Assembly: GCA_030672305.1 (NCBI GenBank)
Contig: DAOVGR010000050.1
Span: forward strand, 32,302 to 96,301
Direction of reading: 5' to 3'
Origin: Thermoplasmatales archaeon
Lineage (GTDB): Archaea; Thermoplasmatota; E2; DHVEG-1
DNA: 64,000 nucleotides
Below the pieces are notes generated by a model. It worked only from the letters and a program-made list of their open reading frames with translations, was not told where the DNA came from and did not search any database. Each line of letters opens with the position of its first letter. Position 1 is the first letter of the stretch. The translations under genes were made by a program, and so were the position numbers. This document shows positions 17,535-63,095 of this stretch, one piece after another.

Positions 17535-20500
17535 ATGTCGAAAAGACTAATTGTGTACATTATTCTATCTATTATTCTATTATCTATATTTATTCCATAT
17601 AATTCCACAGCAGAAGAAGCACCGTGGTGGAATAAAAATTGGTCTTTCAGACAAGAAATTATAATTCCGATAGATACAAGTGATGAATATGCTAAATATC
17701 AACCAATCGATATCCATATAAGTTTCAATAATACATGTTGGGCAAAAAAAGAAGATGAACATTCAATAAGAGTAATCTATCAGTACGGAGAAAGATTAAT
17801 TGAACTTGAATCTCAGATATATGATTTAGAATTTGATAACACTGAGCATCTTAATTCATGCAATCTTGTTTTTCTTATACCTGCGCAGGCAAATGGCGAA
17901 GAGAAATACTTTGTCTATTATGATGATGAGGCGAAATCTGGACCAGATTACCAAAAACATGTTGAAATTGGCGAATCTTATTATCAATACGAACCTATCC
18001 AAGGTCTAGGATTTGAATCATCATATTATAAAATCACAGAGGGAGAGGAAATTATTTATGCAGTCAATAAAGAAGGAACAGTCTTAGGTGACAAAATATC
18101 ACAGCAGGTCACAAGATTAAAGAAAGGTGCAAAAGACATTTTACCACATAATAGCGATCAAATTGCATCATTTGATTTTAATTATTGGTGGTTTAAGGAT
18201 GGAGATTGGTGTAGTATAAGTACATCAGACCGGTTTATTTCAAAACAATTATTTGTAAATGGAAATCTAATGGTTAAATTTGGAATAGTCAGTGAATCTG
18301 AAAATGCGCTTCTCAGATCAACAGTAATTTATAAATATTATTACTGTCCAACTGAGGATAAACGATTATACACTCATGTAAAGCATGAGGTCATAGGTTA
18401 TCCTCTTCCACGAGGCGAAGAAATTGATGTAGCCTATATCATACTTTCTTGTGGCGGGATAAAGAGTAGTATCATTGATGAGTTGGACTTTGGTGAGATA
18501 CCTCCATATTTGCATTTTTATAGTGATGAAGAAAGAGTAAAGTCACATAATTTTGATCAATATCCTGATTATAGTAATTGGCAAGCAATAATACATAAAT
18601 CTGATGATTATGATCTTGGAAGTTCTCCTTGGATATCTGTTGACTATGGTGAAACAGGTAAAGCGCATGGAATAATCTTAGATTCTACCAACATCTTAAA
18701 ATCTGGTACAGATGAGCGTGATGGAATTGAGCTGCAATTATATGAAGCAAAACAAATTCAGTATCCAGGATTAGAAGGAAGTTTTGCCCAGTTATACATT
18801 ATGAGAAATGCTTTTGAACAAGGTGAACCACAAGATGAAATTATTCCTGAGAATTATGTTGTTGAGTTTAATGCAGAATATTTCACAACTGAGAATGGCG
18901 GTTATCCAGTTGTAGAAAAAGAATCAAGTATTTATCAAAAGTTAATTAGCTATCAACCTGAAAATGATGATGTAGTAGATGAAGAGGAGGACGCAGAAAA
19001 ATATAATTTAATTGTGTATCCACATCTACCGCGATCATTACTATTTAAATTTAGGCTCTCCGCTTTACTTCTTAAAGCACCACAGATCACTGCTGAACTA
19101 GTACATAATGAGGAATCAATTGGATATGGAAAACCACATAGAGTGCCTATCACAGAACAGGCTAAAATTGATTGGAAGAATATCTCATTTTTCCGGAAAA
19201 TGACTTTTACAAATATTCCTTCAGGAAAATATGTTGTTAAGATATGGCTGGAGAATGCAATATTTAGCGATGAACGGGAGTTCATAGGTTATAAAATTGT
19301 TGAATTAAACAAAGATGCTGAAGCCCGAATATTTTGTAAACATCAAGGAAAAATCAGTATATCTGTAATAAATCAAGATAAAAATGGAATTGAAAATGTA
19401 GAAATATTTCTGCTAGACGATGATACAATAATTTCAGAAGTTGAAAGTGACAATAATGGAAAAGCGGTATTAAAAGCTCCTTGCGGTCTTGGTAGCAAGT
19501 ATACTTTAAATACAACCTATAAAGGATTTTTTATAGATAAGCAAAATATTAGATTGGGAAGATTAAGACAATTTATACCAAAGAGAGTTTCATTAAGCTT
19601 TGACACTCATGATTTAATGATAAATGTTTTTGATTCAGAAGGGAAAGCCCCTGAATTTAGTGTAGATCTTAGTCTAACCAGTGATGAAATGCAGGTTCCT
19701 GTTGTAATAAAACCAAATTCTACAACTGATGGAACATATAATTTCAAAGCACTTTTTCCAGCCTATTATTTTTTAAAAATAAACTATGAATTATTTGAAA
19801 TTATGGAAAAAATAAATATACCTGATTTATCTCTATTTGAAATTAAATTATATGATTTGAAAGCTTTTATCAAAGATGATTGGAATTTGCCACCAGAGGC
19901 ACCATTAGATGTTTCTCTTACAAGTGAAGATTTTGAAAAAACTGTTGTGTTAAATGCAAAGAAATTATCTTCTGAAGAGTATCTGTTTTCAAATATTTAT
20001 CCAGGAAACTACACAATAAAAGTAAGTTACAAGTCTTATAAAAGAGAGGAATCTATTAAGATTCCCTATAGAGGGGATGGAGAAACACAAATTGTTTTTT
20101 CTGCATTATTTAATATTACAACTAAGGTTCTTAATGCTCGTGGAGATCCTTTGAAAGATTCAAAGGTTCTATTTACTAGAGGAGAAAAAGAAATTGAAGG
20201 AATTTCTAATGATGATGGAAATGTTTTATTTTCTATTCCTCCAGGAAGTTATAATAGTCAGATATACTCAAATGGAGAATTGATTGCTCAAAGAAGGGTT
20301 GATGTGTTTTATGATAAGGATTACTCAATTGTAACTACAAATGAGCCTATTATTCCTTTTATAGTAATTGCTTTAGCAATACTTTTTCTTGCTTTTGCTG
20401 TAGTTTTTGCATATAAAAAGAAAAATATTCTTCTTTTCTTGAAAATATTAGCTATTGTTCTTGCAGTAATTGCTATTGTTTCTCCTTGGTGGACAATGCA

Positions 20501-20996
20501 AGGAAATACTTCTGATCCTCATTTAGAAACTTCAACAAAATTATTCATGATGCCTACAGAAATGACTACCTTAACTTCAAATAACAATTTAACTGCTGGA
20601 GAGGCATCAATACTTGATGAAAAATATACATTTGTTGTTGATCTTTTACCTTTGAGTATTATTGCTGGTATTTTGTGTTTATTGGTACCAATTATTTTAA
20701 AACGCTACATAAAAGGAAAACTTTCATTTTTGATTTTACTTCTTGTGTTAATTATTTTTATTGGCACAATTGTTATCTTTTCTTATGCAACGTCTGAGAT
20801 GGCAAATGCAACAGTTGGGAGTCTTTACGGAAGTGGTAATTTAGATATTAGCATTCCTGGAGAAAATAACTATGAAGTCATGTCATGCAGTTGGGGCCCT
20901 GATCTTAGTTTTTATCTATTTTTAAGCTCAATAATCATTTTAATAATAGTCCTTTGGTTGAACATTAAAAATAGAGATTATTTAATGTCTAAATAA
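17535..20996 (+). CDS. Large cell-surface protein: signal peptide, DUF2341-like N-terminal module, several carboxypeptidase-regulatory-like beta-sandwich repeats, C-terminal multi-TM anchor
   Basis: 1153 aa. N-terminal hydrophobic signal, WWNKNWSFRQEIIIPI motif and repeated Ig/transthyretin-like segments (e.g. NVEIFLLDDDTIISEVESDNNGKAVLKAPCG; VLFTRGEKEIEGISNDDGNVLFSIPPGSYNSQIY). The last 250 aa contain 5-6 hydrophobic helices. Confidence 0.6.
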   Translation: MSKRLIVYIILSIILLSIFIPYNSTAEEAPWWNKNWSFRQEIIIPIDTSDEYAKYQPIDIHISFNNTCWAKKEDEHSIRVIYQYGERLIELESQIYDLEFDNTEHLNSCNLVFLIPAQANGEEKYFVYYDDEAKSGPDYQKHVEIGESYYQYEPIQGLGFESSYYKITEGEEIIYAVNKEGTVLGDKISQQVTRLKKGAKDILPHNSDQIASFDFNYWWFKDGDWCSISTSDRFISKQLFVNGNLMVKFGIVSESENALLRSTVIYKYYYCPTEDKRLYTHVKHEVIGYPLPRGEEIDVAYIILSCGGIKSSIIDELDFGEIPPYLHFYSDEERVKSHNFDQYPDYSNWQAIIHKSDDYDLGSSPWISVDYGETGKAHGIILDSTNILKSGTDERDGIELQLYEAKQIQYPGLEGSFAQLYIMRNAFEQGEPQDEIIPENYVVEFNAEYFTTENGGYPVVEKESSIYQKLISYQPENDDVVDEEEDAEKYNLIVYPHLPRSLLFKFRLSALLLKAPQITAELVHNEESIGYGKPHRVPITEQAKIDWKNISFFRKMTFTNIPSGKYVVKIWLENAIFSDEREFIGYKIVELNKDAEARIFCKHQGKISISVINQDKNGIENVEIFLLDDDTIISEVESDNNGKAVLKAPCGLGSKYTLNTTYKGFFIDKQNIRLGRLRQFIPKRVSLSFDTHDLMINVFDSEGKAPEFSVDLSLTSDEMQVPVVIKPNSTTDGTYNFKALFPAYYFLKINYELFEIMEKINIPDLSLFEIKLYDLKAFIKDDWNLPPEAPLDVSLTSEDFEKTVVLNAKKLSSEEYLFSNIYPGNYTIKVSYKSYKREESIKIPYRGDGETQIVFSALFNITTKVLNARGDPLKDSKVLFTRGEKEIEGISNDDGNVLFSIPPGSYNSQIYSNGELIAQRRVDVFYDKDYSIVTTNEPIIPFIVIALAILFLAFAVVFAYKKKNILLFLKILAIVLAVIAIVSPWWTMQGNTSDPHLETSTKLFMMPTEMTTLTSNNNLTAGEASILDEKYTFVVDLLPLSIIAGILCLLVPIILKRYIKGKLSFLILLLVLIIFIGTIVIFSYATSEMANATVGSLYGSGNLDISIPGENNYEVMSCSWGPDLSFYLFLSSIIILIIVLWLNIKNRDYLMSK

Positions 20997-24892: not shown

Positions 24893-26266
24893 CTATTTTT
24901 TTAAAAAGGCTTTATACGCAAGATAAGAAGAATATATATCAACCTTACATGTAACTTCATATGGAGAATGCATACTCATTACGGGAGGTCCTAGATCAAT
25001 TACTTCCATACCAAGTCTTGAGAAGTATTTTGCAACAGTTCCACCACCACCAGTATCTACCCTTCCAAGTTCAGCGGCTTGCCAGGGAATTTTTTCTTTA
25101 TTAAGCAAGGTTCTAATTTCAAAAACATACTCTGCTGATGCATCATTTGCAGCATATTTACCACCATGACCAGTAAACTTAGACATAACAACTCCACATC
25201 CGAGAGTTGATGCATTTTTTAGTTCAAAAACTTCTGTATAGTTAGGCGTAACAGCAGCGTTGACATCTGCAGAAATAACCTTTGACTTAAGCATCACATC
25301 ATCAGGATCTATCTTTGGATCTAATTTCTTAATAATTGAACGTAAAAAGGTCGTTACCTGCGCAGTTGTGTTACCCTCACTTCCGATTTCTTCCTTATCA
25401 ACAAATAGCACAATAGCTGTGTATTCTGGGTTCTTCAAATCCATTATTGCTTTAAGAGAGGTGTAAGCACAAGCTCTGTCATCCTGACCATAAGCACCAA
25501 TTAGTGATCTATCAAAACCCATGTCCCTTGCCTTAAATGCAGGAACTGCTTCAAGTTCAGCAGAAATAAAATCTTCCTCAGTTATTCCATAGTCCTTATG
25601 TATTTTTTCTATAATTCCTGTCTTTATCTTTTCACTAATTTCACCTTTTACAGGTTGACTACCAACTGTAATATCCAAGCTTTCTCCAGTTATTGCATCA
25701 TCCAGTTTTTTTAAGGCCTGAACTTTATAAGCAAGATGAGGTAACAAATCAGGAACGGAAAATATTGGATCAGAATCGTCTTCACCAAGGGTGAATTCAA
25801 CTTTTTTACCATCTTTTTTTACAACAATACCATGTAATGATAAAGGAATAATAACCCAATGATATTTCTTTATTCCACCATAATAGTGAGTCTCAAAAAG
25901 AGCAACATTTGAAGAGGTATCTTCATAAAGTGGAATTTGTTTTAAATCAAGTCTAGGACAATCTATATGAGAAATAACAATACGAAGACCGCTACTGATA
26001 GGTTTTTTACCAGGAACAATTATCGCTGCTTCCTTTTCCCTGTTGATTTTAATTTTTTTCTTACCCAATTTAGCAATATCATTTATCTTCTGTATTGCTT
26101 CTCTTTCAGTTTTAGCTGAATCTAAAAATTTCTTATAATCTTCACAAAAATCAAATGCATTTTTTATTTTTGCTTTTGAAAATATCTCCCAAGCAGTTTT
26201 CTTTTTGTAAGCATATTTACTCTCTTTTTCTTTCTTTGAATCTTTCTTTGTACCTTTCTTTGCCAT
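24893..26266 (-). CDS. M18-family aminopeptidase (aspartyl aminopeptidase / aminopeptidase I family)
   Basis: 457 aa. M18 blocks SHIDCPRLDLK, GAYGQDDRACAY and SMHSPYE. Confidence 0.75.
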   Translation of the reverse strand: MAKKGTKKDSKKEKESKYAYKKKTAWEIFSKAKIKNAFDFCEDYKKFLDSAKTEREAIQKINDIAKLGKKKIKINREKEAAIIVPGKKPISSGLRIVISHIDCPRLDLKQIPLYEDTSSNVALFETHYYGGIKKYHWVIIPLSLHGIVVKKDGKKVEFTLGEDDSDPIFSVPDLLPHLAYKVQALKKLDDAITGESLDITVGSQPVKGEISEKIKTGIIEKIHKDYGITEEDFISAELEAVPAFKARDMGFDRSLIGAYGQDDRACAYTSLKAIMDLKNPEYTAIVLFVDKEEIGSEGNTTAQVTTFLRSIIKKLDPKIDPDDVMLKSKVISADVNAAVTPNYTEVFELKNASTLGCGVVMSKFTGHGGKYAANDASAEYVFEIRTLLNKEKIPWQAAELGRVDTGGGGTVAKYFSRLGMEVIDLGPPVMSMHSPYEVTCKVDIYSSYLAYKAFLKK

Positions 26267-42874: not shown

Positions 42875-44248
42875 TTATTTATTCCGCCGGTGATGCGAAT
42901 GGCGAGCAGACAACCGACGTTTATGTTTCTCAAGGATGAGTTGTATCAACTCTTCACTGGTTACATGCCTTTTTGGCATGATGACTTCAAAAATCTCTTT
43001 GACGTCCTGCACAGTTAAAAACTCAACTTTCTTCCCCAAATCTATGGATAGCACCATAAGATATAGCATTGCAAGAATAGTCATGGTCATATGATGATGC
43101 CAACCAGTCCAATTACGTACCTGATAATCTGCCAGTCCTGCGATGCCTTTTCCATCTTCAAATGTTCTTTCAATCCAATACCTGCTCCCAGACATTTGAC
43201 CTAAACGATTAATACATGTATCAACAGGAGCATTTGATAACTGATATTTAATTTCTTTACTCTTTGGATCCTTTCGGATGATCAACCAGCATTCATCTCC
43301 GGGGAGGCTATCATTTTCACTTGGAAATACACGCGGGCAGGCCATATCTGCCCATAACTCCCTTCGCTCGGTATCTCGGATAAACACATGATGCCACTCC
43401 TCGCCATCCAGTTGATCTTTAAGATCTCTCACCTTAATTGAATCTGCTCCTTCAATCACTTTCTCACGAGTAGGATTACGACCACGAACACCTTTTTTAC
43501 GTGACGGCACTCCTGTTATCGGACGCTCCAACCATACACCAAGGTTACAAGGAATATCAGCAATATACACCAAACCCTGTGCATCTATCTTGTTTCTCAA
43601 CCATGAGTCACGACCATAGAAACAATCTATCCCCACCCAGCCGAAAGGCACCTTGTTCTTCTTTTGTGCATGAAGAATCATCTCCCATGCAAGCTCTGTT
43701 TTTTTCTTAAAACGAACATACCATGGCACCCCGCATTTCCTCCGACGTACCTTATCCGGTATCCATTCCTTTGGAAGAAATAATCGTTCATCAATCAACG
43801 TCCTATAAGAGTCCTTGGTATATCCAAGGAAGATACCTACCTGACAATTCGCTATCTTTCCTAGTCGACCGCAATACTGTGGAGCCGCACCCACTGAATC
43901 AGTTCCTTGTTTAGGAAAACAACATTCATCAATATGTATTGAACCTTTATTTTTATCTCCAATAGCATCAATGACGTCACGTTGAATATGATTAATTACA
44001 GGTCGATGATTCCATGGTGAATTAGATACAAAATGTTGCAGGGATTGATTGTTACAATCAGGAACATCTTTTGCATATGAACACATGTTACCTCTACCTT
44101 TTCCAAGCAGCTTTCCCTGAATGTACTGGAATGATTGCTTTGCCATATTTCGGGTTTTTGTTAAAAAATACAAGGCATATCCATCATGGAAACATTTAAG
44201 CTTATCATGTGATCCATCTAAATCCTTTACGGATAATGAAAACTTCAT
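42875..44248 (-). CDS. IS701-family (IS4 superfamily) DDE transposase
   Basis: 457 aa. C-terminal signature SGSRYWIERTFEDGKGIAGLADYQVRNWTGWHHHMTMTILAMLYL. G+C visibly higher than flanking DNA. Confidence 0.85.
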   Translation of the reverse strand: MKFSLSVKDLDGSHDKLKCFHDGYALYFLTKTRNMAKQSFQYIQGKLLGKGRGNMCSYAKDVPDCNNQSLQHFVSNSPWNHRPVINHIQRDVIDAIGDKNKGSIHIDECCFPKQGTDSVGAAPQYCGRLGKIANCQVGIFLGYTKDSYRTLIDERLFLPKEWIPDKVRRRKCGVPWYVRFKKKTELAWEMILHAQKKNKVPFGWVGIDCFYGRDSWLRNKIDAQGLVYIADIPCNLGVWLERPITGVPSRKKGVRGRNPTREKVIEGADSIKVRDLKDQLDGEEWHHVFIRDTERRELWADMACPRVFPSENDSLPGDECWLIIRKDPKSKEIKYQLSNAPVDTCINRLGQMSGSRYWIERTFEDGKGIAGLADYQVRNWTGWHHHMTMTILAMLYLMVLSIDLGKKVEFLTVQDVKEIFEVIMPKRHVTSEELIQLILEKHKRRLSARHSHHRRNK

Positions 44249-50950: not shown

Positions 50951-51820
50951 TTATTTGATAAATCGTTTTAATAAAACCCTATTGACTTGTTGATTACCTC
51001 TTCTAGTTATTTGATCTGGAGGAGTTATAACAGCATATTCTAATGCGTTTTTACATTCACATGTTCGTTTGTATTTAATCTTGGGTACCAATTTTTTAAT
51101 GATATTTGCCATGCTTTTATCATTTTTTTTCAGGTTTTCAACAACAGATGCAACTGTTACATCTTCTTCTCCTTCATACCAACAATCATAATCAGTAACA
51201 GTAAGTATTCCACATAAGCACATTTCAGCTTCCCTTGCAAGTTTTGCCTCAGTTGCAAGCGTCATTCCAATAACATCAACATTCCAGCTACGATACAAAT
51301 TTGATTCAGCTCTTGTTGAAAACTGAGGTCCTTCCATACAGATATAGGTTCCCATATGTACATCAACTCCTTGTTCTTTTACTGCTTTATACACTAAATC
51401 TGTAAAAGTTTTACAGAAAGGATCTGCAAATCCAGCATGAACAACAATACCTTCATCAAAAAACGTAGTTTCTCTTTTTGCTGTTCGATCAATTAATTGA
51501 TCGGCAATTACAAAATCACAAGGTTTGATTTCTTTTTTTAAGCTACCAACCGCTGCTGTTGAAATTAGGTATTCCACTCCGCATTCTTTCATAGCAAAAA
51601 TATTTGCTCTATAATTAACCTTATGAGGTGGAAACTGATGATTTTTACCATGCCGAGGAAGAAATACGACCTCAATACCTTCAATCTTACCTAATATAAT
51701 TTTATCAGAGGGTTTCCCAAAAGGAGTTTCCACATCTATTTCTTCAATGTCTTTAATTATACCTACATTGTATAGGCCACTTCCACCAATAATACCAATT
51801 TTAATAGACATAATAATCAA
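50951..51820 (-). CDS. mtnP: S-methyl-5-prime-thioadenosine phosphorylase
   Basis: 289 aa. PNP/MTAP family motifs IGIIGGSGL, FLPRHG and ATEAKLAREAEMC. Confidence 0.85.
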   Translation of the reverse strand: MIIMSIKIGIIGGSGLYNVGIIKDIEEIDVETPFGKPSDKIILGKIEGIEVVFLPRHGKNHQFPPHKVNYRANIFAMKECGVEYLISTAAVGSLKKEIKPCDFVIADQLIDRTAKRETTFFDEGIVVHAGFADPFCKTFTDLVYKAVKEQGVDVHMGTYICMEGPQFSTRAESNLYRSWNVDVIGMTLATEAKLAREAEMCLCGILTVTDYDCWYEGEEDVTVASVVENLKKNDKSMANIIKKLVPKIKYKRTCECKNALEYAVITPPDQITRRGNQQVNRVLLKRFIK

Positions 51821-58206: not shown

Positions 58207-59136
58207 TTAGTATGGATATTGTTTACCTAAAGACTCAGTTGAACTTAATGCAGCAATCGCCCCTTCAGCACAAGCAGTTACAACCTGTCTTAAACCACCA
58301 GTTATATCACCTGCTGCATAAACTCCTTTTACATTTGTTCTTTGCTGTTTATCAACTATTACAAAACCTCTTTTATCTAGTTTAACACCTAGTTCTTTTG
58401 CTAAGATATTTATTGGATCTTCTCCAATTGAAACAAAAACTCCATCAATAACAAGTTTTGATTTTTCACCAGAATTTACATTATGAATCTCAAGAAATTC
58501 AACCTTTTGATTACCCTGAACTGATTCTACATGAGTATTGAAGATGATTTTCACACCTTTTTCTATTGCTTCATTCTTATAGGCATTCTCAGCACGTAAC
58601 TGGTCACGTCTATGAATTACAGATACTTCCTCACAACCAATTTGTTTTAGAAATATTGATTCAATAAGAGCAGTGTTGCCACCACCAATAACAGCTACCT
58701 TTTTTCCCTTAAAAAAGAATCCATCACAGGTTGCACAATATGAAACTCCTTTTCCTGTTAGCTCTTTTTCACCAGGGGCATTAAGTTTTTTATAATCTGT
58801 GCCTGTACAAAGAATAATTGCTTTTACATCATATGTTTTTTTATCTGTTATAATATTGAATTTGTCTTTTAATTTTTCAATTTTTTTTACTTCCTCATTA
58901 AAATGAATATCTGCATACTTACTAGCATGCTGCTTCAGCTTTTCCATTAAATCGATACCAGAAATGGATTCATAACCAGGATAGTTTTCAATCTTTGGCG
59001 AAACGTTAGCTAAACCGCCTCCCATCCCTTTTTCAAATACTACGGTTTTAATGCCAGAACGGACTGCATAAATACCAGCTGTATATCCTGCAGATCCTCC
59101 TCCAATTATTGCTAATTCATATTCCATGTTAATCAA
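58207..59136 (-). CDS. trxB: Thioredoxin reductase (low-Mr TrxB-like FAD/NAD(P) oxidoreductase)
   Basis: 309 aa. FAD motif AIIGGGSAGYTAG, redox-active CATC and NAD(P) motif VAVIGGGNTA. Confidence 0.85.
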   Translation of the reverse strand: MINMEYELAIIGGGSAGYTAGIYAVRSGIKTVVFEKGMGGGLANVSPKIENYPGYESISGIDLMEKLKQHASKYADIHFNEEVKKIEKLKDKFNIITDKKTYDVKAIILCTGTDYKKLNAPGEKELTGKGVSYCATCDGFFFKGKKVAVIGGGNTALIESIFLKQIGCEEVSVIHRRDQLRAENAYKNEAIEKGVKIIFNTHVESVQGNQKVEFLEIHNVNSGEKSKLVIDGVFVSIGEDPINILAKELGVKLDKRGFVIVDKQQRTNVKGVYAAGDITGGLRQVVTACAEGAIAALSSTESLGKQYPY

Positions 59137-59590
59137 TAATTACATTATCCTTTAAAACTTTGTATGCTTCTTCTGGTGATTCTATATTTTGTAACATTTT
59201 TTCAAATGGGCATAAACCATCGCCACTTCTATTTTTTATAAAAGGCAACATTTCATCAGCTTGACAAAGTATTCCGCCAATAATTAGAATAGCAATTGCT
59301 GTTTTTGTTGCCTGAGGAGAATAAACACCTTTAACATTAGAATATCTACAAAGAAAGGCTGAAGCTTTCCCAAGAATTCTATCTCCAACAACCGTTCCTT
59401 CCATTTCATCTCCTAGTTCATTAATTATCTTCATTATCGGTTTTATCCCATCTCCTTTTTTATGATTTAAAATTTTATCATCTCGAATTACTACAATGGA
59501 ATAATCTTCAGATGACAATGTTTCACGAGCAAGATTCATATCATTAATAATTTCATCAGTTACATTCATCAAATGCCTCTCACGGCACAT
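59129..59590 (-). CDS. Conserved hypothetical protein between nrdG and trxB
   Basis: 153 aa with no clear motif. Translationally overlaps both neighbours (ATGA-type overlaps), so it is likely co-transcribed. Confidence 0.5.
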   Translation of the reverse strand: MCRERHLMNVTDEIINDMNLARETLSSEDYSIVVIRDDKILNHKKGDGIKPIMKIINELGDEMEGTVVGDRILGKASAFLCRYSNVKGVYSPQATKTAIAILIIGGILCQADEMLPFIKNRSGDGLCPFEKMLQNIESPEEAYKVLKDNVIID

Positions 59591-60261
59591 ATATCAAAAT
59601 GTGATTTAATCTCTTCTAAAGTATCCGCTAATTCTTTTTTAGTGTATGGTGTAAAATCTTCAAGTTTAGCTGAAATCAGTGGTGAATTTGGTTTAAATTG
59701 TTGTAGATAGAACTTTTTTGATCCATTAAGCCATTTAGCAATATCTATGATATCATCTTTTGTTAGTAATTTAGGGACAAAAGTTGTTCTAAACTCATAA
59801 TCTATTTTAGAATTTTGTAATAAATTAATTGATTCTTCGATTTTTTTTATGTTTACTTTTACGTTAGTTAGTTTTTCATATTTCTTTTTAGAGGCTTTAA
59901 TATCCATTGCAACATAATCAATGAGATTTTTATCAATAAGCTCCTTTAATTTTTCAGGGTACATGCCGTTTGTATCAATTTTTATTAGATAAGACATTTT
60001 TTTTACTTTTTCACAAAAATCAGAAATATCTTTCTGCATAAGAGGTTCTCCACCTGAAATTACTAAACCTTCTAGCATTCCCTTTCTTTTTTCAAGAAAA
60101 GACATAACCTCTTTTTCAGACACAGGTTGTACATTTCCAATAACTATTTCTTTATTATAACAAAATGGACATCTAAAGTTACATCCGACTGTCCAAATTA
60201 TTGCACTAATAACATCTGGGTAGTCCAACAGCGATGTTTTTTGAATTCCTCCAATCTTCAT
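59569..60261 (-). CDS. nrdG: Anaerobic ribonucleoside-triphosphate reductase activating protein (radical SAM)
   Basis: 230 aa. N-terminal CNFRCPFCYN cluster motif typical of NrdG/PflA-type activases. Directly downstream of nrdD. Confidence 0.85.
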   Translation of the reverse strand: MKIGGIQKTSLLDYPDVISAIIWTVGCNFRCPFCYNKEIVIGNVQPVSEKEVMSFLEKRKGMLEGLVISGGEPLMQKDISDFCEKVKKMSYLIKIDTNGMYPEKLKELIDKNLIDYVAMDIKASKKKYEKLTNVKVNIKKIEESINLLQNSKIDYEFRTTFVPKLLTKDDIIDIAKWLNGSKKFYLQQFKPNSPLISAKLEDFTPYTKKELADTLEEIKSHFDICAVRGI

Positions 60262-62408
60262 TTAGTAACCATAACTTTCTTTTCCATCATGTTGAACATT
60301 TTTCTGTCATTATATTCTTGTTGTTTCCCAAGGTTCCATTGACTAACTGGACGTAGGTATCCAACAACTCTTGAATATACCTCACATGGTATGGTTTTAT
60401 TTTGCCCTCGACAAGTCGGACATGTCTGATGCTCACCAGAAATATATCCATGCTCAGGGCAGACACTAAATGTAGGTGTCAAGGTATAATATGGAAGTGT
60501 ATAATTTTGCGCTACTTTTCTAATAAGTTTTTTTGCAGCCTTTGATGATGGACTTTCTTCACCAAGAAAGATATGTAATACTGTCCCTCCAGTATATTTG
60601 GATTGTAAGGTATCTTGAAGATCTAATGCTTCAAATACATCACTCGTGTAACCAACTGGTAGCTGAGTTGAGTTTGTATAATATGGTTCAACGCCTTTGC
60701 CTCCATTTCCACCATTATATTTTTCTTGATTATAGATTCTAATATCTGGATATTGCTTCTTATCAACACGACTTAGTCGATACGATGCACCCTCTGCAGG
60801 TGTTGCCTCAAGATTGAAGATATCTCCAGTTTCCTCCTGGTAATTAGCGATTTTATCACGCATATAATCAAGGACTTTTTCTGCAAAGGCTTTACCATCC
60901 TTGTCACCTACACTTTTATTCATAAAATTAAGAAGTGCATCATTCATTCCTATAAGACCAATAGTTGAAAAATGATTTTTCCAGTATTCACCAAAGGTTT
61001 TCTTAACATCTTGAAGATAAAACCGTGAATAGGGATGCAGACCACTATGTGTTAGATTTTCAATGATTTCTCTTTTAATCTCAAGACTTTGCTTAGCAAG
61101 TTCCATAACTTGATCTAGTCTTTGGAAAAAATCATTGTCATCCTTTGCAAGATATCCTATTTGAGGGAGATTTATTGTTACTACACCAATAGATCCGGTT
61201 TTAGGATTGGCACCAAATAAACCACCTCCCCTCTTACGAAGTTCCCTATTTGAGAGTCTAAGTCTACAACACATACTCCTTGCATCTTCTGGTTTCATAT
61301 CACTGTTAATAAAATTAGAAAAGTATGGAATCCCATACTTTGCAGTCATTTCCCAAATAGGATCAAGTCCATCGTTATTCCAGTTGAAATCCTTTGTAAT
61401 ATTATATGTTGGAATTGGAAATGTGAATGGTCTTCCTTTAGCATCACCTTCACACATGATATCTGCAAATGCATGATTTACCATGTCCATCTCATCTGTA
61501 AAATCACTGTAGTTATCATCTTTCAGATTTCCACCAATAATAGCGGGTTCATCGACCATATAACTAGGTACAGTGAGATCAAGTGTGATATTTGTAAATG
61601 GACTTTGGAATCCTACTCTTGTTGGAACGTTCATGTTGAATAAAAATTTCTGCATTTCCTGTTTTACTTGTTCATATTTTAGATTATCATATCTAATAAA
61701 TGGAGCAAGTAGGGTATCAAAATTTGATAGTGCTTGGGCCCCCGCCGCTTCCCCCTGAAGCGTATATAGATAGTTTACAATTTGCATCATGGCTGTTCCA
61801 AAGTGTTTTGCTGGTTTACTTTCAATTTTTCCTGATACTCCTCTAAAACCAAGAAGAAGTATATCTTTCAGATCCCAACCTACACAATAGGCTCCAAGAG
61901 TACCAAGATCATGGATATGTAAATTTCCTTGAGAATGAGCTTCTCCAATATCTGGTGGATAAATCTTATTCAACCAATAATGAGATACAATATTTTCTGT
62001 TGCATATACATTCAGACCTTGAAGAGAGTAACTCATGTTACTATTTTCATTGACCTTCCAGTCCATCATACTGAGATATCCATCGACCACGTCAATATCC
62101 TTTAGAAGCCCACCAATTTCGCGAATATCCTGATGTTGTTTTCTATAAAGAATATAAGCTTTTGCTGTCTTTGCATGACCTTCTTCAATAAGAGTTTTTT
62201 CTACGGTATCTTGTACCTGTTCAACTGTTGGTATTTCACCTTTCTTTAGTTCCTTATTAATTCTTTCAAGTACTTTATCTGTGAGTTCACCTGCTTTCCT
62301 GTAATCTTTTCCACCTACAGCCTGAGCTGCCTTCCAAATAGCATTTGTTATTTTTATTGGATTAAAATCAGAAGTTTTCCCGTCTCTTTTACTTATTTTT
62401 CTTATCAT
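60258..62408 (-). CDS. nrdD: Anaerobic (class III) ribonucleoside-triphosphate reductase
   Basis: 716 aa. N-terminal ATP-cone, C-terminal Zn ribbon CPEHG...CPTC and glycyl-radical motif RVVGYLRP. Confidence 0.85.
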   Translation of the reverse strand: MIRKISKRDGKTSDFNPIKITNAIWKAAQAVGGKDYRKAGELTDKVLERINKELKKGEIPTVEQVQDTVEKTLIEEGHAKTAKAYILYRKQHQDIREIGGLLKDIDVVDGYLSMMDWKVNENSNMSYSLQGLNVYATENIVSHYWLNKIYPPDIGEAHSQGNLHIHDLGTLGAYCVGWDLKDILLLGFRGVSGKIESKPAKHFGTAMMQIVNYLYTLQGEAAGAQALSNFDTLLAPFIRYDNLKYEQVKQEMQKFLFNMNVPTRVGFQSPFTNITLDLTVPSYMVDEPAIIGGNLKDDNYSDFTDEMDMVNHAFADIMCEGDAKGRPFTFPIPTYNITKDFNWNNDGLDPIWEMTAKYGIPYFSNFINSDMKPEDARSMCCRLRLSNRELRKRGGGLFGANPKTGSIGVVTINLPQIGYLAKDDNDFFQRLDQVMELAKQSLEIKREIIENLTHSGLHPYSRFYLQDVKKTFGEYWKNHFSTIGLIGMNDALLNFMNKSVGDKDGKAFAEKVLDYMRDKIANYQEETGDIFNLEATPAEGASYRLSRVDKKQYPDIRIYNQEKYNGGNGGKGVEPYYTNSTQLPVGYTSDVFEALDLQDTLQSKYTGGTVLHIFLGEESPSSKAAKKLIRKVAQNYTLPYYTLTPTFSVCPEHGYISGEHQTCPTCRGQNKTIPCEVYSRVVGYLRPVSQWNLGKQQEYNDRKMFNMMEKKVMVTK

Positions 62409-62875
62409 TTTTTTACATCTCCTGTGGTTTGATTAATTAAATTTTTAACTTCCTTTTCAAAACTGGATAAATCGGTAAATGACCTATAAACAGAAGCAAA
62501 CCTGATATAGGCCACATGGTCAACTTCTTTTAATTTATTCATTACATATTCTCCAATTAATTTGCTTTCAATTTCTTCTTTTCCAATTCGTCTTATTTTT
62601 TCTTCGATTGAGACAATTATCTCTTCTATTTTTTCAGAACCAATTGGGCGTTTTTCTAAGGCTTTCATTATTCCATTTTTAATTTTATTCCTATCAAATT
62701 TCTCTAAACGTCCATCTTTCTTTTTAACATATATAGGGGTTAATTCAATGTATTCATAAGTAGTGAAACGCTTATTGCATTTGAGACACTCCCGTCTTCT
62801 TCTAATCGATAACGTCCCTGTATCGCGGGAGTCCGTTACTTTTGTCTCAATATGGTGACAGTAAGGGCATTCCAT
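62405..62875 (-). CDS. nrdR: Transcriptional repressor NrdR (zinc ribbon plus ATP-cone)
   Basis: 156 aa. MECPYCHH...CLKCNKRFTTYE zinc ribbon followed by an ATP-cone. Confidence 0.85.
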   Translation of the reverse strand: MECPYCHHIETKVTDSRDTGTLSIRRRRECLKCNKRFTTYEYIELTPIYVKKKDGRLEKFDRNKIKNGIMKALEKRPIGSEKIEEIIVSIEEKIRRIGKEEIESKLIGEYVMNKLKEVDHVAYIRFASVYRSFTDLSSFEKEVKNLINQTTGDVKK

Positions 62876-62900
62876 CCAACTCTCTCCAGTGGGCCATCAA

Positions 62901-62916
62901 ATACAATATATTGTAT
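62901..62916. promoter_or_regulatory. Candidate NrdR box 1 (perfect 16-bp palindrome)
   Basis: ATACAATATATTGTAT, 26 bp upstream of the nrdR start. Resembles the NrdR-box consensus acaCwAtATaTwGtgt. Confidence 0.5.
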
Positions 62917-62931
62917 CTAAAAAATAATATA

Positions 62932-62947
62932 CTACATTATATTGTAT
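62932..62947. promoter_or_regulatory. Candidate NrdR box 2 (imperfect palindrome)
   Basis: CTACATTATATTGTAT with core tacaTtatatTgta. Centre-to-centre spacing to box 1 is 31 bp, the spacing characteristic of tandem NrdR boxes. Confidence 0.45.
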
Positions 62948-63095
62948 GTTTATGAGATATTTAAACTTTTTGATTTTTCCCTATTTTTAACATAAAATAA
63001 CCACTAATTTTTACATAACTTACTTACAGGATTAATAATTAATGTTATAAATCTTATAAAAATAAAAGCTAGATTTTATTAAATAGAAAAAAACG

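Follow-up and report, generated by a model that had tools for sequence, protein, structure and literature searches.

A conserved pair of NrdR boxes, the probable operator of an nrdR–nrdD–nrdG operon in Thermoplasmatota archaea

In bacteria, the Zn-ribbon and ATP-cone repressor NrdR acts at promoters of ribonucleotide reductase (RNR) operons, among them nrdDG, nrdAB and nrdHIEF of Escherichia coli and nrdRJ and nrdAB of Streptomyces coelicolor, and in nrdRJ it is encoded by the first gene of the operon that it controls (PMC9110341, PMC13584703). The published site consists of two partially palindromic 16-bp boxes, in which C4, A6, A8, T9, T11 and G13 are highly conserved with an interval of 8 bp from C4 to G13, joined by a linker of 15–16 bp (less often 25–27 bp) that is constrained in length but not in sequence, and both boxes are needed for NrdR binding (PMC13584703). 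The cryogenic electron microscopy structure of S. coelicolor NrdR has a tetramer presenting two Zn-ribbon pairs 80 Å apart, with the DNA kinked at each box, D15 and R17 reading bases and an RRRR stretch holding the backbone, and DNA binding requires dATP and ATP (PMC9110341). Here we examine 64 kb of the genome of a Thermoplasmatales archaeon (31% GC; hereafter the window), in which two 16-bp palindromes occupy an intergenic region (21% GC) just ahead of an nrdR–nrdD–nrdG operon. An earlier note on this DNA (the original prediction) took them for tandem NrdR operators of an autoregulated operon, and our analysis makes it very probable that they form the operator at which NrdR, the product of that operon's leading gene, binds.

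According to published reports, 22% of archaeal genomes carry NrdR (PMC13584703); it has been called 'rare in archaea' (PMC9110341) and credited to 'some archaea', where it is said to control 'a few archaeal RNRs' (PMC9110341, PMC12176259, PMC13584703, PMC12051234), while one 2025 preprint denies that archaeal NrdR orthologues exist. Its presence in an archaeon, which the original prediction considered unusual, is hardly so given the 22% figure and given that it proves to be a clade-wide trait here. The closest archaeal parallel that we found is in haloarchaea, for which the part of Lundin et al. (2010) dealing with their nrdR–nrdA/nrdB operons places nrdR as the first gene and interprets the arrangement as a bacterial transfer (PMC3019208). 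As described there, those operons encode class I RNR and are partly plasmid-borne, whereas the operon studied here encodes class III RNR in an anaerobic Thermoplasmatota lineage. The literature that we searched yielded no mention of NrdR together with Thermoplasmata, and no description of archaeal NrdR operators or of how these relate to the transcription factor B recognition element (BRE) and the TATA box.

The box nearer to nrdR, ATACAATATATTGTAT, carries all six core positions of the published site (C4, A6, A8, T9, T11 and G13) and shares 13 of its 16 positions with box 2 of E. coli nrdDG, ACCCAATATGTTGTAT (PMC13584703, Table 1). The distal box differs from it at two positions and keeps five of the six (C4, A6, A8, T9 and G13), with A replacing T at position 11. 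C4 and G13 are thus present in both, matching the published 8-bp interval, and the box centres lie 31 bp apart, which leaves a 15-bp spacer. Read in the direction of transcription, the distal box (62947 to 62932) is followed by the linker, the proximal box (62916 to 62901), 25 nt containing GGAGAGAG, and the minus-strand ATG of nrdR at 62875, so that the pair lies 25–72 bp ahead of the operon's first gene. These findings bear out the tandem palindromes of the original prediction in their coordinates, perfect first copy, imperfect second copy and centre-to-centre distance, and the 14-mer that it gave for the second box, TACATTATATTGTA, corresponds to 62933–62946, within 62932–62947. When the window was scored with a weight matrix derived from only 10 boxes of E. 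coli and S. coelicolor for which binding has been shown by experiment (PMC13584703, Table 1), the pair ranked first in the 64 kb, with 16.5 bits against 10.0 for the runner-up, and no further site within two mismatches of the box was found elsewhere in the window. The cores, the linker length and this ranking together uphold the proposed match to bacterial NrdR operators in both sequence and spacing.

Conservation is what carries the assignment. With the NrdR protein as query, species-representative genomes yielded 26 archaeal loci, all from Thermoplasmatota (60–88% identity), and 54 bacterial ones (53–60% identity); the archaeal set was therefore picked by protein similarity, blind to the DNA motif. 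Both boxes are present upstream of nrdR at all 26 archaeal loci, with nrdR directly downstream of the pair in each of them as in the window, and the centre-to-centre distance is 31 bp (15-bp linker) in 25 and 32 bp (16-bp linker) in the remaining one, L025. The distal-box consensus in the relatives is ATACNAYATANTGTAG, with A1, T2, A3, C4, A8 and G13 invariant, and that of the proximal box is ATACAATATRTTGTAT, with T2, A3, C4, A6, T9, T11, G13 and T14 invariant; C4 and G13 are invariant in both boxes of the 27 archaeal operators (the window and the 26 relatives). Aligning the upstream 120 bp of these 27 sequences, we found every invariant column to fall within the boxes, except for one BRE-like A and the ATG, and the linker sequence and the stretch ahead of the ATG to vary among loci, with 5–42 bp separating the proximal box from the ATG. 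The order nrdR–nrdD–nrdG is kept at all archaeal loci, usually along with a DUF1893 gene and a thioredoxin-reductase-like (trxB-like) gene. Conservation upstream of nrdR orthologues, on which the original prediction had staked its proposal beforehand, was hence found at every archaeal locus.

The predicted repressor is itself intact. Window NrdR has an N-terminal Zn-ribbon (PF22811, 66.8 bits) followed by an ATP-cone (PF03477, 81.2 bits), and matches E. coli NrdR (9fzf) with E = 1.5e-42 and S. coelicolor NrdR (7p37) with E = 7e-33. It carries two CxxC motifs (C3/C6 and C31/C34) together with D15, R17 and R25–R28 (RRRR), and its residues 1–20 align to S. coelicolor NrdR 7p37 without gaps. The locus is therefore like the bacterial NrdR systems in box core, linker of 15–16 bp and, as predicted, placement at an RNR-operon promoter, as well as in having a Zn-ribbon and ATP-cone repressor with D15, R17 and RRRR, and it resembles S. 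coelicolor nrdRJ in that nrdR comes first in the operon, control of which is in the window a prediction. The conservation, the fit to the published site definition and the intact predicted repressor support the core of the original prediction, and a tandem operator pair ahead of nrdR–nrdD–nrdG would imply autoregulation. The nearest NrdR sequences are those of Thermoplasmatales metagenome-assembled genomes (MAGs) of the SG8-52 type, and no gene on record in public assemblies matches window NrdR exactly. Four NrdR entries from Thermoplasmatales archaeon SG8-52 MAGs (P0003, P0033, P0050 and P0060), 88–97% identical to window NrdR, which passes the NrdR equivalog model, are labelled merely 'ATPase'.

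The pair is selective in its distribution among bacterial relatives. Only three of the 54 bacterial nrdR loci, all from Omnitrophota, have it upstream of nrdR, again 31 bp centre to centre and about 35 bp upstream of the gene (L032:4919-4965, L070:4917-4963 and L080:4920-4966; for example ACACTATATATAGTAT, 15 bp, CTACAATATAGTGTGT), and these are the three bacterial loci in which nrdR is followed by nrdD–nrdG. No such pair was found upstream of nrdR at the 51 others, where nrdR is not followed by nrdD–nrdG, and its absence from stand-alone bacterial nrdR fits a site that would belong to RNR promoters. The Omnitrophota operons are like that of the window in gene order and 31-bp pair, and their NrdR is 54–57% identical to the window's; they differ in having bacterial hosts, an NrdD whose catalytic core is only about 28–29% identical to the window's, and box arms that are ACAC...GTGT-like rather than the archaeal ATAC...GTAT. 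We detected neither DUF1893 nor trxB downstream of nrdR–nrdD–nrdG at these three loci. We also turned the archaeal boxes into a matrix, whose matches across the 80 loci (~700 kb) were almost exclusively the expected sites. In the window its only additional match, at 44026–44041 (ATACAAAATGTTGCAG, 14.2 bits), is a lone box-like 16-mer that lies inside a 457-aa open reading frame (ORF; 42875–44248, minus strand) and has no partner, and we judged it to be chance. That ORF and another of 457 aa at 24893–26266 were suspected of being repeat copies, and proved on comparison to be unrelated.

Metagenomes were scanned with the box-pair pattern, which matched at least 120 stretches; as these are selected by the pattern itself, they are excluded from the conservation evidence. 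Among the matches listed, nrdR lies directly downstream in most, is distant and on the opposite strand in L089 and L185, and NrdJ-like ORFs occur in L117 and L169, in the latter beside an ORF that we read from its sequence as RecJ-like; no second archaeal NrdR target was found among them. Six of the contigs listed (L091, L102, L126, L150, L164 and L194) encode an NrdR only 51–55% identical to the window's, with a near-identical operator that has a 16-bp linker (ATACAACAGGTTGTAT, TCTTTGAGTTCCTATT, ATACAATATATTGTAT) directly upstream of nrdR. The same pattern matched 13 stretches in viral contigs, none of which has homologues of the operon proteins.

Where the locus departs from its bacterial counterparts is in the promoter. 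The block AAAAAG-TTTAAATA at 62971–62958 would provide a BRE and a TATA box, and ends 10 bp upstream of the distal box. Close relatives all share an upstream block of the form AAAnnTTTAAAAA, nearly all archaeal relatives have a TTTAWAWA-type 8-mer whose end is 9–11 bp ahead of the distal box, and in the columns just upstream of this TATA block A is conserved at 90% or more, invariantly in one of them. The distance from block to box does not depend on the upstream neighbour, which may be a ThiI-like gene, a different gene or nothing recognisable, and the BRE/TATA-like block would hence belong to the nrdR promoter. L025 and L064, the most distant archaeal loci, have no gap between TATA-like block and distal box, and this box would there fall between TATA and the transcription start.

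NrdR sites are expected to overlap the start site or the region where polymerase binds. Archaeal core promoters have an A/T-rich TATA element of 8 bp, with a purine-rich BRE ahead of it, some 25–30 bp upstream of the transcription start, and archaeal TATA boxes are centred near −26/−27 relative to that start. Applied to the conserved block, this usual geometry would place the start near 62935, with the distal box at about −12 to +4 and the proximal box at about +20 to +35, and under either start-site geometry the box pair is predicted to lie downstream of the TATA box. The overlap of the boxes with the TATA region that the original prediction envisaged is therefore probably wrong, since the separate conserved block sits upstream of the distal box, and the boxes would instead extend over the 5′ leader and the predicted start. 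In contrast to bacterial NrdR promoters, that of the window would be of the BRE/TATA type, with RNA polymerase recruited by TATA-binding protein (TBP) and transcription factor B (TFB) and no sigma factor, and the archaeal boxes keep a fixed 9–11 bp from the TATA block. The linker differs as well, in that its T-run is partly conserved, whereas bacterial linkers are reported as non-conserved: positions 8–12 are T in 17–22 of the 26 operators with a 15-bp linker (the window and 25 relatives), with T-runs that reach 9 nt, and the other linker positions mostly vary while the length is fixed. In the stretch that leads from the proximal box to the start codon, the element TATCTGG(A/T)GAG recurs in most relatives; it includes the Shine-Dalgarno-like GGAGAG or GGTGAG. 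The same stretch is 10–12 nt shorter in L007, L016–L019 and L021, and has only 5 nt in L025 and L064.

From this arrangement, and by homology as regards the nucleotide dependence, we infer a mechanism in which a rise of dATP relative to ATP would bring NrdR into its tetrameric form, in which one Zn-ribbon pair would hold each of the two boxes, set about three helical turns from one another, and the DNA would be kinked. The bound tetramer would cover about −12 to +35 of the promoter, so that RNA polymerase could not be recruited to TBP and TFB, or could not escape from the promoter, and nrdR, nrdD, nrdG, the DUF1893 gene and the trxB-like gene would be shut off as one autoregulated unit. An archaeal precedent for such a blocked step is Pyrococcus LrpA, which, according to Dahlke and Thomm in 2002 (a reference listed in PMC2995911), reportedly represses by blocking recruitment of RNA polymerase. 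The two are alike in an operator lying over the start-site region downstream of BRE/TATA and in autoregulation of the regulator's own gene (start and autoregulation both being predictions here). LrpA is unrelated in protein family and ligand logic, however, and the NrdR tetramer would bind at two places, 31 bp from each other, with a kink in the DNA and a predicted footprint extending about 35 bp into the transcribed region.

Several points weigh against reading the pair as an NrdR operator with this mode of action. The literature that we searched offered no evidence on binding, expression or start sites for the NrdR of any archaeon, and our view of the regulon is confined to 64 kb of the genome. 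At position 11 the distal box does not have the conserved T, and this position is degenerate across the clade. The start site is placed solely from a TATA-looking block in very AT-rich DNA, and a survey of TATA-to-ATG distances at other promoters of the window was too noisy to give a clean calibration. The T-run in the linker is not predicted by the bacterial model and resembles an archaeal termination signal on the coding strand. The signal within the window, finally, is modest, as AT-rich palindromes and pairs of core positions arise by chance: perfect 16-bp palindromes number 2 against a mean of 2.65 expected from dinucleotide shuffles, requiring the six core positions in two boxes 31–32 bp apart gives about one chance pair per window, and the score of the pair with the bacterial-box matrix is attained by 13 of 300 shuffles (p ~0.04). 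The other perfect 16-bp palindrome, GATCAATTAATTGATC at 51487–51502, is unrelated to the NrdR motif, and a core-position pair at 19224–19270, inside an ORF (17535–20996), was judged to be chance.

The T-run and the fixed promoter phase bear on one elaboration of the NrdR operator. It may have been rebuilt into an archaea-specific promoter module, with the boxes phase-locked 10 bp downstream of TATA and the tetramer acting directly against TBP, TFB and RNA polymerase, in which the oligo-T of the linker, at about +8 to +14, might add early termination that has no bacterial counterpart; we think this unlikely. It is improbable that the sites are genuine protein-binding sites used by another regulator, or that NrdR there activates or has a dual role. 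Archaeal regulators do activate or repress depending on where they bind, yet NrdR in particular is the regulator to which sequence, symmetry and spacing point, the sites accompany nrdR and in bacterial relatives are seen only where it heads an nrdDG operon, and their position downstream of the conserved TATA block is the typical one of an archaeal repressor.

We consider it very improbable that the boxes are core promoter elements rather than a repressor site, their central ATATA serving as the TATA boxes of one or two promoters. Each box does have a TATA-like centre, but the strongest conservation lies in the outer ATAC/GTAT arms and follows a dyad symmetry that a TATA box would not need, and a separate, canonical-looking BRE/TATA block is kept at a fixed upstream distance. 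Nor does the variable interval from proximal box to ATG (5–42 bp) suit a TATA box that sets the start about 25 bp downstream, and the pair also occurs in bacterial nrdR–nrdDG operons, which have sigma-type promoters.

The kinship with Omnitrophota raises the question of whether the operators are relics of a horizontally acquired bacterial nrdR cassette that no longer regulate the archaeal promoter, for which we see very little probability. We built a neighbour-joining tree from the NrdR proteins of the window, E. coli, S. coelicolor and the 80 retrieved loci (no bootstrap, and limited to nearest neighbours), in which the 27 archaeal NrdR form one clade whose sister is an Omnitrophota/Planctomycetota group, as acquisition would have it; some Omnitrophota also share the nrdR–nrdD–nrdG layout with its boxes. 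The tree weakly suggests a single acquisition of nrdR followed by vertical inheritance in this lineage. Against a relic, the operon has the GC content of its surroundings (0.33, against 0.31 for the window), and the boxes are near-invariant amid freely diverged intergenic DNA and fixed in phase to the archaeal BRE/TATA-like block, which points to ongoing selection in the archaeal context.

It is hardly credible that the proximal palindrome acts instead as an RNA hairpin of the 5′ leader, affecting translation or stability. A start within the distal box would indeed leave this palindrome transcribed, and the predicted fold contains a 10-bp stem; its −10.4 kcal/mol for the leader is nevertheless unexceptional (z = −0.61, with 49 of 200 shuffles folding at least as well). 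Moreover, covariation of symmetric positions is lacking: at positions 5 and 12, 32 of the 88 proximal boxes and 54 of the 88 distal ones have non-complementary bases, mostly T/T or C/T, and double changes number only two. Such a pattern is that of a protein dimer contacting two half-sites. That the palindromes are functionless products of chance in very AT-rich intergenic DNA is effectively excluded, despite the base composition and the window statistics given above, because all 26 archaeal relatives keep the pair, with spacing fixed, C4 and G13 invariant and linker and flanks varying, and because a second copy (at most two mismatches) 31–32 bp from the first has a probability of only about 2e-5 under a composition model.

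The features of the NrdR operator and of the operon are collected in the table. Successive ORFs overlap, by 4 bp (nrdR/nrdD), 4 bp (nrdD/nrdG), 22 bp (nrdG/DUF1893) and 8 bp (DUF1893/trxB-like), and nrdR, nrdD, nrdG, the DUF1893 gene and the trxB-like gene are therefore a single operon; a T7 run follows the stop codon of the last gene. Profile matches confirmed the gene calls of the original prediction, NrdR, NrdD, NrdG and a thioredoxin-reductase-like protein, and identified as DUF1893 the small protein that it had listed. The DUF1893/TM1506 gene sits between nrdG and the trxB-like gene, overlapping both, and is kept in that place in most archaeal relatives. No thioredoxin or NrdH gene was found among the five operon genes.

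Table. Coordinates of the predicted operator, promoter and leader elements and of the operon genes, in window numbering
Feature	Position	Strand	Details
Proximal NrdR box (predicted operator)	62901-62916	(-)	ATACAATATATTGTAT, perfect 16-bp palindrome
Distal NrdR box (predicted operator), promoter-distal	62932-62947	(-)	plus strand CTACATTATATTGTAT, minus strand ATACAATATAATGTAG
Linker between boxes	62917-62931	(-)	15 bp, minus strand TATATTATTTTTTAG, T6 run 62919-62924
Putative archaeal TATA box	62958-62965	(-)	TTTAAATA; archaeal promoter consensus
Putative BRE	62966-62971	(-)	AAAAAG, purine-rich, adjoins TATA box
Predicted transcription start region	62933-62937	(-)	~30 nt past first TATA base, inside 3′ end of distal box
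Shine-Dalgarno-like GGAGAGAG	62880-62887	(-)	ahead of nrdR start; GGAGAG, GGTGAG or GGTGAT in relatives
nrdR, 156 aa, Zn-ribbon and ATP-cone repressor	62405-62875	(-)	TIGR00244 189.3 bits (cut-off 124.65), residues 1-146
nrdD, class III ribonucleotide reductase, N-terminal ATP-cone	60258-62408	(-)	NF006126 1063.6 bits (cut-off 548); PF13597, PF03477
nrdG, radical-SAM activase	59569-60261	(-)	TIGR02495 230.3 bits (cut-off 131.15)
DUF1893/TM1506-family gene	59129-59590	(-)	PF08973 105.1 bits (cut-off 27)
trxB-like, thioredoxin-reductase-like flavoprotein, last operon gene	58207-59136	(-)	TIGR01292 341 bits, slightly below cut-off 343.45; PF07992

NrdD is interrupted in frame in many related archaea, at four sites near residues 175, 269, 380 and 541 (window numbering). 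Four representatives of these inserts, of 331–547 aa, were scanned (L001:3670-5082, L001:5905-7545, L016:6602-7594 and L014:5999-7261); all four match a LAGLIDADG homing-endonuclease domain, an intein splicing domain passes the E-value threshold in three, and we read them from sequence as inteins. Window NrdD (60258–62408) is without such inserts. The window also encodes a tetraether lipid synthase, Tes (561 bits, cut-off 450), and an archaeal-type threonyl-tRNA synthetase, and these two genes, together with Thermoplasmatales MAGs as the closest relatives, bear out an archaeal host. RNA families and tRNAs were searched for in the window and none was found.

The operator is thus canonical and the host lineage new, with the conserved promoter layout a modest addition; as a largely expected finding, it leaves knowledge of NrdR and its operators unchanged. 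One practical gain is in annotation, for the Thermoplasmatales MAG proteins now named 'ATPase'. The layout of putative BRE/TATA, 10-bp gap, box, 15-bp linker and box predicts that recruitment of RNA polymerase, and not the binding of TBP and TFB, would be blocked. Altogether, the locus offers a concrete, sequence-defined example of nucleotide-sensing NrdR that, with its binding predicted, would be wired into an archaeal promoter.

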